DNA from: Escherichia coli O127:H6 str. E2348/69
Lineage (GTDB): Bacteria > Pseudomonadota > Gammaproteobacteria > Enterobacterales > Enterobacteriaceae
Strand: one strand, 5' to 3'
DNA length: 64,000 bases
Assembly (NCBI RefSeq): GCF_000026545.1
Contig: NC_011601.1
A program made the position numbers. Shown here one piece after another: positions 1-6,000 of this stretch (positions within the stretch are counted from its first letter, which is position 1; every line of letters starts with the position of its first letter).

Positions 1-3000
1 TTATTCTAAATAAACTTGTGGCATTCCTGTGTTTTTAATAATTAATGGTTCTATAAATTTGGCATAAACATCAACAAACAATTTTTCATTTCCTCTTACA
101 TGGCAATGTAATGTGAGATTATTATCATTACTCAGTACTTTTTTAGGGATAACTAATTGATAATCTTGTTCAATGTTTAGCACCGAGGGAATTTCGTAAT
201 TATATCGATGGACATGAAGTATGATGTCCTCATCTTCAGAGAGAACCCCCTGATACACAGAAGCAATATCGCCGCCAGTGATCATATTTCCATTTTTAAT
301 CAGTATACCTTCCCCACAGGAGTCTTCATTGCTAATAAATATAATGCTATAGATGCCATCCTTCATAATCATAACTCACTCAGTTTCATACTAACCTCAC
401 TCCTTTCAATTTGTTCTATCCATAAGCAATATCAAGAATAATGGAGACCTTTCTTTTTCTCCAGATTGCAATGTAATATATCATTAAATATACTCATGTT
501 TCAACCTGCTGTTTCCCTGGTTAACATATGTAATTTCTGATTAATAATATTGAGTAACAACGTAAAAATGAAAAAAATAATACTGAGTATCATTCTCATT
601 TCAAATTACTGTAATGCTTCCGATTGTTTTGAAATTACAGGAAAAGCATATAACATAGATCCACTAATATTAAAAGCAATTGCATGGAATGAATCAAAAT
701 GCAAAAGCGGAATAAAAAGCAAAACAAACAAAAACGGAACGTATGATATAGGTATAATGCAAATTAATTCATCTCATTTAGATTTATTAAGCAAATTTAA
801 TATATCTGAAGATGATTTATTGAATAATGCCTGTATAAACATATCTGTTGCTGGTTATATCTTAGCCTCTAACATAAAATACAGAGGGAATACATGGGAT
901 GCAGTTGGTGCGTATAATGCAGGTTACTTTAATACACCAAATGCAGTAGAACTCAGAAGGCAATACGCAATGAAAATATATAAAACATATAATAAATTAA
1001 AGAATAATGAGCAAATTATCGATTAATAATCAAGGTCTATCGCAATACGAATCAATTGTGCCACAGGTTCAAAAAAGTCTTCTGTTATATATTGTCCTTT
1101 ATGTATATTCTTATAGAGACTTCTTGCTAAAGGAATATCTTCAATCACTGGAATATCATAGAGTTCAGCCAGTTTAATGATCTGTAGAGCTTTGGCATCT
1201 TTTCCTGTTTCAATAACTAAAGGTAATGGAGTCTCCCCAAGTTTATAGTATAGGCAAATCGCAATGTGAGTCGGGTTTTTAACAATAACGGTTGATTTTT
1301 TGATGTTATTCGCCAAACTTCCACTTTGTATCTCGGAATGAAGGCGACGGCGCTCCCCTTTAATTTCAGGGTTACCATCAGTATCCTTGGCTTCTCGTTT
1401 CACCTCATCTTTACTCATTTTCATTTTCTTCAGTCCCTCATGCTTCTGGAACCAGAAATCAAATACTGAAAAGAGTAGATATCCGAATAGCACGCCTTTC
1501 CATAAAAGAAAAACAAAAAAGGCAACAACGACAAGAGCTTGATATGCGTTCAGTCCTGTGAAATTAGCAAACTCATTTGCATATGAATGCCCCATAAAAT
1601 AAAAAATGAGAACAATTATCACTAACTTAAATACTGATTTAAGTAGCTCAAAAATGCTCTTTACAGAAAAAATATTTTTCAGGTTATTTTTTACACTAAT
1701 CTTCTGAGCCGATGGTTTTATTTTTTCAACCGCAAAGATGAATCCTATTTGTGATACACCAGTCGTAACAGTTCCAACAAAGACAATCAAAGAAATTGGC
1801 AAAATATATAATAAAAATATATTTAACACCGCACCTAATATTTCTCGAATGGCATACAAAAACGGTCTATTTAGCGAGTCTATTGTCGTATTAACTAACC
1901 CAACTATATCAACAAAAAAACTCATGCCATATAAAGAAAAAAATGAAAATAAGATTAATGACTGCACTGCAGCCATTACCTCTTCACTTTTTGTTACATC
2001 GCCCTTCTTTTTTAGATCCCTCAGTTTTTTGGGTGTGGGCTTTTCTGTTTTTTCACTCATTAATCATGCTCGGTAACGATCTATCAATTATGTCAGAATG
2101 AATATTTGCCGTAATAAAATCAGGAAAAACATGAATAACTAATAGCAATATAAAGATTGCTATCAAACTTTTTACTGGCAGTGATAATGTGAATACGTTT
2201 AGTTGAGGCGCTGTTTTGTTAAGAAACCCAAACCCCATATCACATAAGAATATACCGATAATCATGGGAACTGAAAATGATAACATCAGTTTAATAAATG
2301 AATCCCATAGAGAAAACAAAAAATCTATTAAAGCACGATTGAATGCAATATCGGCTTGTAATGGTAATATCTCGTAGGATAAATATAGCTTATCCAGAAT
2401 GCTTTGTATCCCACCATGAATAACAAAGATCACAGAGATAAATTGGTACAAAATAACGCCAGTGATAGAAGATGAATCACTTATGGACGGGTTAAAAATT
2501 GAAGATATTGTTGAACCTCTTAGAGTATCAATAATCTGCCCAGCCGCATCTATTGCCCAAAAAAGAATAGTAAATGATAACCCAATGAAAAAACCAATAC
2601 TTATTTCTTTTAGCACTATTCCTGTCAACTGAAAGATTCCAGATGGCAATTTTTCCGAAAATGTATAGTTCTCTACTATGATCGGAAGCGTAAACGCAAT
2701 CATAATTGAGTTGCGAATAAAGTTACTGAGCAAAACACCTGTTGAAAATATTGGTAGGATAATAAACATCCCCAGCGGCCTGAGTATACAATAAAATGAT
2801 GATACTATGACCGTCATTATCTCATTCATTAGCCGTTCACCTTCGGAATCATTTCAAATATTATCGACGAGAAGTTGATGATTGTTGTTCCCATCCAGTG
2901 ATAAGTCAGGGCAAGCGTAGCAAACACTGCTATTATTTTTAGCAAAAAAGGCAATGTTTGATCCTGTAACTGCGTTATAGCCTGGACCAGACTAATAATA

Positions 3001-6000
3001 ATACCGATAACAGAGGCCGCTATGACTGTAGGCAATGAGAGGATAAATATTATCCAGAACGTTTGCACACATAATTGAACAAAATATCCAGTATCCATCA
3101 ATTCACCACCAACAGAAATTCGAATAATTTTTGCCAGCCTCCAACAAGAATGAATAACAAGATCTTAAAAGGAATCGAAATTGTTACTGGCGATACCATC
3201 ATCATACCCAAGGCCAATAAGATATTGGAAATGATCAAATCTATCGCAATAAAGGGTAAATAGAGCAAAAAACCTATCTTGAATGCAGCTTCAAGCTGCC
3301 CCATCGTGAAAGCCGGTAACAGTATAAATAGAGAGTCTTTTTTTAAGATAGTTTCATTACCCAATTTTTTTTGAGCTGCACGTTCAAAAAACTCTACATT
3401 GTCTTTCTCTGTATTTTTTTCTAAAAAACCGCGATATGGTGATAATATTTTCTCATCAACTTTTTGAAAAAAATCAGAGTCGGTATAATTGATTGGTTCC
3501 TGAGAAATATTATCATTTATCTGTAATATTATCGGAGACATAATAAACATTGTCAGTATCAAAGACACTGATGTTAGCGCCATGTTTGGTGGTACCTGTT
3601 GAATGCCTAATGCGTTCTTCAATATCCCCAGTACAATAGAAATTTTCAGGAATGAAGTACCAATAACAACAAATATTGGCAGTAATGATAACAGAAAAAA
3701 TACAATAATTAAAAATATTGGCTGTGAGCCAATGGTCATTAATTGAGACATATCATCATTCCTGAATAATGCTAAGATAATTATCTTTAAATGAATTCAA
3801 TAAAATACTTATTTGCTCTAATGGGTCTAAAGTTATTCTAATATATTCATTTTCTATTATAATTTTATTATGCGGTGTGTTTGCATCATTAATAAGCTGT
3901 ATATTGTTGGCCTCGCCAGGATCAAGTTTAATGTCTGGATTTTTAGTGATCTTAATAGCTCCGACAATATTGTTATTAGATAGAGTTTCCCTTACAACTT
4001 CATTAAGTAAATCATCCCAATTAATTCTTGATGATGTATCTAAAGAATGTAATGCATTAGTCAGTGACAAATGAACCTTATTCATTATGTCCTGCATTAA
4101 GACCAACTCGATAGCCTGGATATCTTTAACCCATTTTATCGATTGGTTAACCTCTTTATCTAATTTTATTTTATTATTTTTTCGAATCCTTTCTCTCATT
4201 GCAATCATTTTTCTGGCAATTTTTTTTCTGGATTCTATCTTTAATTCTTTCGATTTCCTCCTCGCCCTCAGTAAATGTTCATATGTTTTTTTTCGAGCCA
4301 GTTTGATAATATCATCAGATTGAATAATTTCCTGTAACTTATCCTCTGGTATGATATCTTCTGTAAGCACTAAATCAATTTCTATATTTTTAAATTCATA
4401 AAGTTTCATAAGGCAATAAAATTTTATTAAGTCTGTTAAGAAATAAATCATTAATATGAGTTGGTTTTATTTCTCCACTTTTCGGTAAAAGATATTTGAC
4501 TATGGTCCATAAAGGATTATCAGCAAATAGCCACTCCAAATTTCCTGCACCGTATTTTATTAACTCAGCACAAAACCGTTCTTCACCATATTCTGGTTTA
4601 CATTGCCCTCCCTGCCAATAGAATGATAACTGCTTCACATTTTGATATCCTATCTCTCTAATCAGAGTTTCTCGATATAATCGTGAGAAAATATAATCAG
4701 GGCATTGAATGTCAAATAATGCACTACTTAGAGCAAGCAATCTTATTTTCCCAATTGACTGATATAAAAAACCTTCCTTATTTATGTCAGATAATTCCAC
4801 ACCAGAAATTTTATCTTGTATCTCCTGACGCAATATCTTATTGAGTTGATTACGAGTAGAACTAGTTTCTCTTAAACGCCGAAAACTGACCTGATTGACA
4901 CCGGTTAAATCACCTAGCCATTCATCATGAACCATCATGATTGGATAATTAATTAATTTATAGTAGTTATAGTCTATTTTATTAAAAATTGTCATACTAT
5001 TTTTCTATTATTTCTATTCCGTTGATTCATTGTTGATTGGCTTTTAGATCTTGCTGGACTCAGTGTCTCTATTAGTTTTTCAATCTTACTTAGGGCAGAA
5101 TCATATAATTTTCGCTCTTCACCATATGTGTACCCCTCAATTAATTTGTTTAATTTTTCTGCCGCCTGAGGATCTGTTTTTGCTTTTTCACTTAACTCAT
5201 TAACGCTTTCTTTTACGACATCAAATTCGGCGATTATTTTTTTTATCGCCTCAATTTCTGATCTTATTTTTTTATCTAATAGTTCTTTATTTCTTGTTTG
5301 GCTCACAATACTCATCCTCTATTTATTATTAATCCTGATTCGCATTATCTCTATAGTCCTAATTGCCGCATCACACGCAATGAGCAGTTCCTTTGCTTCA
5401 TTGTAGGTAACTTTATCCAAAGGGTGTTTCATTTTTTCATGGATTTCGTTCTTTTTGTCGTTTATTTTTTCAATAAAAACATTTGCGGCTTCTTTATTTT
5501 TTATTATTTCGTCTTCCAGCTCAGTTATCGTTATCATTTAATTATTTTATGTTAAATATTTTTCAGCGGTATTATTTCTTCTTCAGTGTCCTTCACAAGA
5601 AAATCTTCTTTCTTCATTCCATTCAACAGTGCTTCTTTAAGCCAGCGTGGCTGTCGGCCTACGCCCGACCAGGTCTGCCCTTCTTCATTGCGGTAGTAAA
5701 CACCTTTCGATGAGTTCCGGCGAGCGAGTCCATCATCAGGCACATTAGTATATCCCAGCTCTTGTAAGGTTATATTGTAATAAGTAATCTGCTTCTGAAT
5801 CGACTCAATTACACTTTGAACTTCCTGCTCTCGCAGTCGCTTTGCTTCCTGCTGTAGAACTGCAATTTGCTCTATAAGCTGAATGTATGGACTTGTTGTA
5901 TGTGAATTAGTTTCCATATTCATAATAAATAATCTCCGCATGCTTTAATATTTTAAGCTATTAGCGACCTTATCCTTATCAGGAAGGACAACAATTAATC

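Follow-up and report, generated by a model that had tools for sequence, protein, structure and literature searches.

Conserved gene overlaps, candidate translational coupling and the EscL start in the LEE1 operon of Escherichia coli E2348/69

Several neighbouring genes of LEE1, an operon of the LEE (locus of enterocyte effacement) with genes for a T3SS (type III secretion system), share the nucleotides at which one gene ends and the next begins. This raises the question of whether these genes are translationally coupled and, for one of them, escL, of where translation starts. We analysed LEE1 in the enteropathogenic E. coli (EPEC) strain O127:H6 str. E2348/69, using a window of 64,000 nucleotides from contig NC_011601.1. 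Of the window, no more than roughly the first 8.4 kb is LEE sequence, with chromosome backbone as the remainder; the region 1000-6000, a 100% match to the E2348/69 chromosome, is present in 696 of 5,426 complete E. coli genomes. LEE1 reads ler-escE-cesAB-escK-escL-escR-escS-escT-escU, with all nine genes on the minus strand at spacings of -14 to +14 (negative values denote overlaps), and has been described as a single operon (PMC4868261, PMC5073101). Our favoured reading, to which we give a probability of roughly 0.65, is that LEE1 is a compact polycistronic unit in which termination-reinitiation would operate at the overlaps and EscL would start at ATG 4409. The overlaps themselves are real and conserved, yet they are ordinary compact-operon architecture.

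Junction geometry across LEE lineages

Junctions were read from the sequence and its open reading frames (ORFs) and then compared with the RefSeq annotation (Table 1). Five of the eight overlap (-4, -14, -1, -1 and -8), and the remaining three are small gaps: ler/escE at +14, escE/cesAB at +12 (+3 if counted from ATG 5315) and escL/escR at +4. A sequence-only reading of this locus had listed an 8-nt overlap of escU with escT, a single nucleotide common to escT and escS and a 4-nt ATGA overlap of cesAB with escK, all of which were reproduced exactly. It had also given up to 56 nt for escL/escK, and escK indeed ends at 4396, which makes 56 nt from ATG 4451 and 14 nt from ATG 4409. The 4-nt ATGA-type overlap proposed for escS/escR did not hold: from the annotated and invariant ATG 3098, only 1 nt is common to both genes. 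Only with TTG 3101 as the start would 4 nt overlap (TTGA), and the E. albertii-type LEEs have TTA at that position. The junction is TAATG in the E. albertii-type LEE and in two divergent operons, L019 and L020, with the -1 spacing kept and TTG 3101 lost. As for the extent of the feature, 1023-5315, the overlaps inside it are mostly exact, but ler and escE (5319-5941) of the same operon were omitted and its upper limit was set at a non-conserved ATG of cesAB.

To this we added an alignment of nine LEE1 sequences (E2348/69, O157, O26, Escherichia sp. MOD1, an E. coli LEE of 88% identity, three sequences of E. albertii type and Citrobacter rodentium), which spans the E. coli alpha, beta and gamma types, E. 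albertii and C. rodentium. All stop positions, all RefSeq start positions and the spacings -4, -14, +4, -1, -1 and -8 were identical in 9/9 sequences. In L019, a LEE with an EscL of 45% identity, the same series reads -4, -14, +2, -1, -1 and -8. In L020, an operon of K-L-R-S-T-U order with an EscL of 28% identity, 6/6 junctions overlap (-4, -8, -1, -1, -11 and -4), and in three clusters resembling Salmonella pathogenicity island 2 (SPI-2) a 4-nt overlap joins the PF13327 (SctK) gene to the SctL-like gene.

L019 and L020 are very divergent LEE1-like operons from sequencing-run assemblies. In L019 (Logan SRR28408690 contig) tir and cesT adjoin ler, and L020 (SRR30908908 contig) is flanked by a PapB-like regulator on its upstream side and by a phage-type integrase on its downstream side. 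In C. rodentium (L007, about 4120-4145), escE has, compared with E. coli, a deletion of 7 nt close to its 3' end; this shifts its stop to a TGA overlapping the start codon of cesAB (ATGA), a junction for which the gene caller gives -4.

The gene products were assigned to families by profile searches. EscR, EscS, EscT and EscU matched TIGR01102, TIGR01403, TIGR01401 and NF009364/TIGR01404 above their cutoffs, and their genes share a strand, follow one another in R-S-T-U order and are separated by less than 500 bp, the synteny that has been used to define the sctRSTU export apparatus (bioRxiv 10.64898/2026.02.19.706803). EscK belongs to Pfam PF13327 (SctK, T3SS_LEE_assoc), with 39.8 bits against a gathering cutoff of 25. 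For EscL, the curated SctL/FliH/YscL profiles of NCBIfam and Pfam gave no match even at E <= 1, a sequence search of the PDB found no relative and tblastn against plasmids returned nothing. EscL is assigned as SctL from a published PSI-BLAST analysis (PMC1084347) and the conserved position after sctK; remote EscL homologues sit after PF13327 genes in LEE-like and SPI-2-like clusters. The RefSeq name for escL (3756-4409) is 'espL' ('LEE stator protein EspL'), which clashes with the unrelated effector EspL.

Table 1. Genes and junctions of LEE1 in E2348/69, with the convergent neighbour etgA; coordinates are those of the window
Feature	Coordinates	Strand	Remarks
ler	5552..5923	-	RefSeq coding sequence (CDS), 123 aa; alternative upstream ATG 5941; Pfam H-NS C-terminal domain
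escE	5319..5537	-	14 nt past the ler stop; TIGR02501 YscE family, 77.9 bits
cesAB	4992..5306	-	RefSeq start 5306, 104 aa; ATG 5315 gives 107 aa; Pfam CesA
cesAB stop/escK start overlap (ATGA, -4)	4992..4995	-	same in 9/9 LEE lineages, L019 and L020
escK (SctK)	4396..4995	-	RefSeq, 199 aa; Pfam PF13327, E = 5.7e-10
escK/escL overlap of 14 nt (-14), from ATG 4409	4396..4409	-	same in C. rodentium (L007) and L019
escL upstream 14 in-frame codons (putative long-form extension)	4410..4451	-	MIYFLTDLIKFYCL; inside the escK 3' end
escL (putative SctL stator), favoured form	3756..4409	-	RefSeq CDS, 217 aa; ATG 4409 invariant
escL stop to escR start, spacer of 4 nt (+4)	3752..3755	-	sequence, RefSeq, alignment
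escR (SctR)	3098..3751	-	TIGR01102, 296 bits (cutoff 208.6)
escR stop/escS start, one common base (TGATG, -1)	3098	-	sequence, RefSeq
escS (SctS)	2829..3098	-	89 aa; TIGR01403, 114.8 bits (cutoff 76.5)
escS stop/escT start, one common base (TAATG, -1)	2829	-	sequence, RefSeq, alignment
escT (SctT)	2053..2829	-	TIGR01401, 281.6 bits (cutoff 163)
escT/escU overlap of 8 nt (ATGAGTGA, -8)	2053..2060	-	invariant in 9/9 LEE lineages and L019
escU (SctU)	1023..2060	-	NF009364, 559.8 bits (cutoff 381)
etgA	568-1026	+	RefSeq; convergent to escU

The start of EscL and the doubtful starts of CesAB and Ler

The sequence-only reading called the escL start ambiguous between ATG 4451 and ATG 4409, and the databases do hold both forms: the 231-aa protein of the original annotations (O52126, CAS11512) is found in UniRef and GenBank, and the 217-aa protein in RefSeq, which places the start at 4409 in all genomes inspected. 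The comparative evidence decides the matter for 4409. When the codons of 4409-4451 were followed across LEE variants, as had been proposed, ATG 4409 proved invariant, and four E. albertii-type sequences had ATA in place of ATG 4451. A working T3SS is found in E. albertii, an attaching-effacing pathogen. Among E. coli genomes, a 70-nt query across the escK/escL junction placed 6 of the 696 in the E. albertii-type identity class. The 231-aa EscL entries of E. albertii-type LEEs (P0047-P0050) begin at this ATA read as Met (L008 and L009, 5001-5003). We rejected them as support for the long form, since the DNA has ATA at the supposed start and the entries are an annotation artefact; GenBank entries of this kind overstate how widely the long form occurs.

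More distant relatives give the same picture. In L019, a stop closes the frame upstream of escL six codons before the ATG, and in L018, L020, L021 and L022 no canonical start is found upstream of it; in none of these five distant relatives is the extension both open and provided with a start. In an exhaustive HMMER search with the long form as query, the relatives recovered (22-45% identical) aligned their own residues 1-7 to query residues 15-20, and residues 1-14 matched nothing except near-identical fragments. Multiple alignment placed the N-terminus within two residues of Met15 in seven of eight remote homologues, which have a Y/F-x-F...I-x-D motif in common at that end. A single pairwise BLASTP offset to an SPI-2-like SctL had hinted at a longer ancestral N-terminus; this hint was contradicted by both the multiple alignment and the exhaustive search.

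The two starts also differ in their relation to the upstream gene. ATG 4409 sits 11 nt upstream of the escK stop. As coupling has been found to decay from -4 to -25 nt of overlap and to be absent at -25 (PMC12548453), a start at -56 could not be coupled to escK termination, whereas one at -14 could. Neither start has a Shine-Dalgarno (SD) sequence, and ATG 4451 is placed in a small predicted hairpin inside a translated ORF.

Some observations pull the other way. ATG 4451 and its open 14-codon frame are kept in EPEC, enterohaemorrhagic E. coli (EHEC), O26 and C. rodentium, and a published EscL expression construct was cloned from ATG 4451 (primer orf5BamF, PMC11925242). Nor does the substitution pattern tell the frames apart: of eight substitutions in the 42-nt extension, counted by hand from the junction alignment, four are synonymous in escK and three in the extension. 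Even with its retention in these lineages and in the databases, a 231-aa EPEC EscL made from ATG 4451 with a 56-nt escK overlap, as originally annotated, appears very unlikely given the lost start in E. albertii-type LEEs, the absence of aligned homologues for residues 1-14 and an overlap outside the working range of reinitiation. The comparative evidence argues strongly that EscL starts at ATG 4409 and has 217 aa; because it starts there, the real escK/escL overlap would, with the same high confidence, be 14 nt and not 56. The extension 4410..4451 is probably not translated; an additional, minor 231-aa isoform in EPEC, EHEC and C. rodentium, in which the extension would mask the conserved N-terminal motif, is conceivable but improbable. 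A literature search found no ribosome profiling, N-terminal peptide or start-site data on EscL.

In the sorting-platform component SctQ (Spa33, HrcQ), experiments have shown that translation from the internal start gives a second product, which is needed for function (PMC4832279, PMC8553256). EscL resembles SctQ as a T3SS cytoplasmic component with two candidate in-frame starts; it differs in that its upstream start is not conserved and that there is no sign of two isoforms. An EscK-EscL fusion by +1 frameshifting at UUA-UGA was rejected by inspection, as there is no slippery site of the CUU-UGA type and no upstream SD.

Two other genes of the operon have doubtful starts as well. For cesAB, ATG 5315 is ACG in O26 and GCG in the E. 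albertii-type LEE, whereas 5306 remains GTG or TTG; a GAGG lies 9 nt upstream of 5306 and directly abuts 5315. The 107-aa form from ATG 5315 is the one used in PDB entries 2LHK, 2M1N and 1XOU. For ler, ATG 5941 (129-aa form) is ATA in Escherichia sp. MOD1-EC7003, and ATG 5923 (123 aa) is invariant and preceded by a GGAG SD. Together, the comparison of LEE sequences resolves three doubtful starts, in favour of EscL 4409, CesAB 5306 and Ler 5923, and this is the only new outcome: the overlaps are already visible in public annotation and are of a known feature type, and the coupling of T3SS export-gate genes is already under experimental study.

Possible translational coupling at the overlaps

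No SD was found in the sequence upstream of escE, escK or escL; the latter two have duplex energies near 0 or positive, and neither of the two escL starts has an SD. Since escK and escL lack an SD, coupling by termination-reinitiation is plausible in LEE1, and the canonical junction motifs and their retention across deep LEE divergence fit it too. Ribosomes ending one cistron would restart on the next, and such reinitiation would count most at cesAB to escK and escK to escL, where the downstream genes have no SD; ATG 4409 would fall inside the mRNA span covered by a ribosome terminating at the escK stop. For escR, escS and escT, SD-like sites in the upstream gene would probably add independent initiation. 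Coupling of this kind could keep partners co-produced, namely SctK-SctL of the sorting platform and SctR-S-T-U of the export gate, and could let output drop along the operon.

Huber et al. (2019 and 2023) reportedly described termination-reinitiation at such overlaps. The process is general to bacteria and archaea at -4, -1 and -8 overlaps, and the spacings enriched across prokaryotes are -4 (NTGA), -1 (TGATG/TAATG) and -8 (NTGNNTGA), as reviewed in PMC12548453. LEE1 uses these same classes (-4, -1, -1 and -8) together with one -14 and one +4 junction. Like the coupled pairs in general, it has ATGA, TGATG/TAATG and ATGNNTGA at its junctions and its products are subunits of heteromeric complexes; the escK/escL overlap differs, as -14 lies outside the three enriched classes.

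Several results weigh against coupling and favour a view in which the overlaps are a neutral by-product of compaction in AT-rich DNA. First, overlaps are no more frequent in LEE1 (5/8) than among close co-directional gene pairs, taken from RefSeq coordinates, in 43 kb of adjacent E. coli backbone (8/15; Fisher p = 1.0); the figure for the remaining LEE is 5/18 (p = 0.19 against LEE1). Second, the junctions show no conservation beyond that of the coding sequence, as 40-nt windows around the starts rank anywhere from the 14th to the 99th percentile of the operon. Third, because the spacing of R/S, S/T and T/U varies in other T3SS families (-4 to +14 in Ysc, Mxi-Spa, Hrp1, Hrp2 and Rhc, with one S/T gap of +263), overlaps as such do not appear to be a family-wide T3SS requirement. 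On these comparisons, close packing is general and the particular junction geometry is specific to the LEE/SPI-2 lineage. Fourth, SD-like sites precede escR, escS, escT, cesAB (from GTG 5306) and ler, with a weak one for escU; those of escR, escS and escT have predicted duplex energies of -4.3 to -6.2 kcal/mol. As the LEE1 junctions are moreover all AU-rich and predicted to be unstructured, independent initiation at escR, escS and escT would be possible. Last, a literature search found no LEE1 coupling experiment or ribosome profiling, so that the case for coupling rests on geometry.

If the overlaps were neutral, each cistron would be initiated independently, escR, escS and escT through their SD-like sites and escK and escL through unstructured AU-rich leaders, and the overlaps would have no regulatory function. 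We regard this as rather unlikely, though a serious contender. It would have to accommodate spacing classes that persist in LEEs with an EscL identity as low as 45%, as well as an operon at 28% identity with overlaps at every junction, and initiation at escK and escL in the absence of any SD. Such motifs have moreover been experimentally tied to termination-reinitiation (PMC12548453), and the homologous sctS-sctT pair has been demonstrated to be coupled (bioRxiv 10.64898/2026.02.19.706803).

In that homologous pair, from Salmonella pathogenicity island 1 (SPI-1), sctT is translated only if a ribosome at work on sctS opens a stem-loop in which the sctT SD is hidden, and the stop-start distance itself is without effect (bioRxiv 10.64898/2026.02.19.706803). 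The escS-escT pair resembles it closely: the genes are homologous, stand in the same R-S-T-U order and are tightly abutted, an SD lies inside the 3' end of sctS, and the same purpose, limiting SctT relative to its partners, is proposed for both. An escS 3' stem-loop hiding the escT SD until a translating ribosome melts it would accordingly be conceivable, the more so as an SD-like site, AAGGTGA, lies 7 nt upstream of the escT start within the escS 3' end and as such stem-loops have been suggested in other T3SS (bioRxiv 10.64898/2026.02.19.706803). The predicted structure speaks clearly against it. The two SPI-1 genes lie a few nt apart and have the stem-loop, whereas escS and escT have a single base in common (TAATG) and are not predicted to form a stable stem-loop. 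Over 96 nt, made up of the final 80-odd nt of escS and the escT start, the minimum free energy (MFE) is -10.6, against a shuffled mean of -15.5 (z = +1.72), and a 71-nt window at the escT start has z = +2.05 and an almost unpaired centroid; 195-197 of 200 shuffles have a stronger MFE than escS-escT, and no stem-loop of the SPI-1 type was found. We consider SPI-1-style coupling of escS-escT extremely unlikely.

The same holds for structure elsewhere in the operon. No z-score below -1 was obtained for RNA structure at any LEE1 start (-50 to +20) or at the escS 3' end, and on this ground structure-based coupling in LEE1 was dropped. An Rfam scan of 1-9000 gave nothing in LEE1 and only a sub-threshold match in the ler-espG intergenic region. 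Because no SD-hiding stem-loop is predicted in LEE1, the mechanism of coupling would not be of the SPI-1 type, and termination-reinitiation remains the reading that we favour.

A stronger form of this reading would hold that the K-L-R-S-T-U spacings (-4, -14, about +3, -1, -1 and -8) are constant down to 45% identity since each sets a specific reinitiation efficiency. If true, the operon would hard-code a graded output near subunit ratios, for example SctR5:S4:T1:U1, decreasing along the gene order, with SctK:SctL as another. We hold this to be improbable. In LEE3 of EHEC, polar or coupling effects have been reported that followed neither spacing nor SD in any simple way (PMC4868261). LEE3 is an operon other than LEE1, although it belongs to the same pathogenicity island, contains apparatus genes and has similar overlaps. 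In E2348/69 itself, LEE3 (L010 14889-20796, outside the window) has longer same-strand overlaps (cesL/escV -4, escV/escN -17, escO/escP -8 and escP/escQ -38), and LEE4 and LEE5 have no same-strand overlaps.

Flanking features and meaning for LEE1

Two observations concern the flanks of the operon. At its distal end, escU (minus strand) and etgA (plus strand) converge with a 4-nt overlap at 1023-1026 in which the stop codons are interleaved (TTAA); gene calls for O157, O26, C. rodentium and the divergent LEE L019 show this 4-nt overlap as well. At its proximal end, the stretch that separates the LEE1 promoter region from espG contains, at about 6309-6460, a repeat-like element that is richer in GC. 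This element gave the sub-threshold Rfam match, to V_AS5, with 36.6 bits against a gathering score of 96, and its core, GTGAATCCCCAGGAGCTTAC (plus strand), may resemble an ERIC/IRU repeat.

The main value of these results lies in annotation and construct design. The first-generation starts of Ler (129 aa), CesAB (107 aa) and EscL (231 aa) have each been lost in at least one natural lineage, whereas their shorter RefSeq counterparts are invariant; it is the longer forms that appear in published EscL constructs and CesAB structures. None of this alters how the LEE is currently understood. The conserved spacing in LEE1, together with the absence of an SPI-1-type stem-loop, provides a concrete case for asking whether T3SS families limit SctT, or co-produce partner subunits, by different coupling mechanisms.

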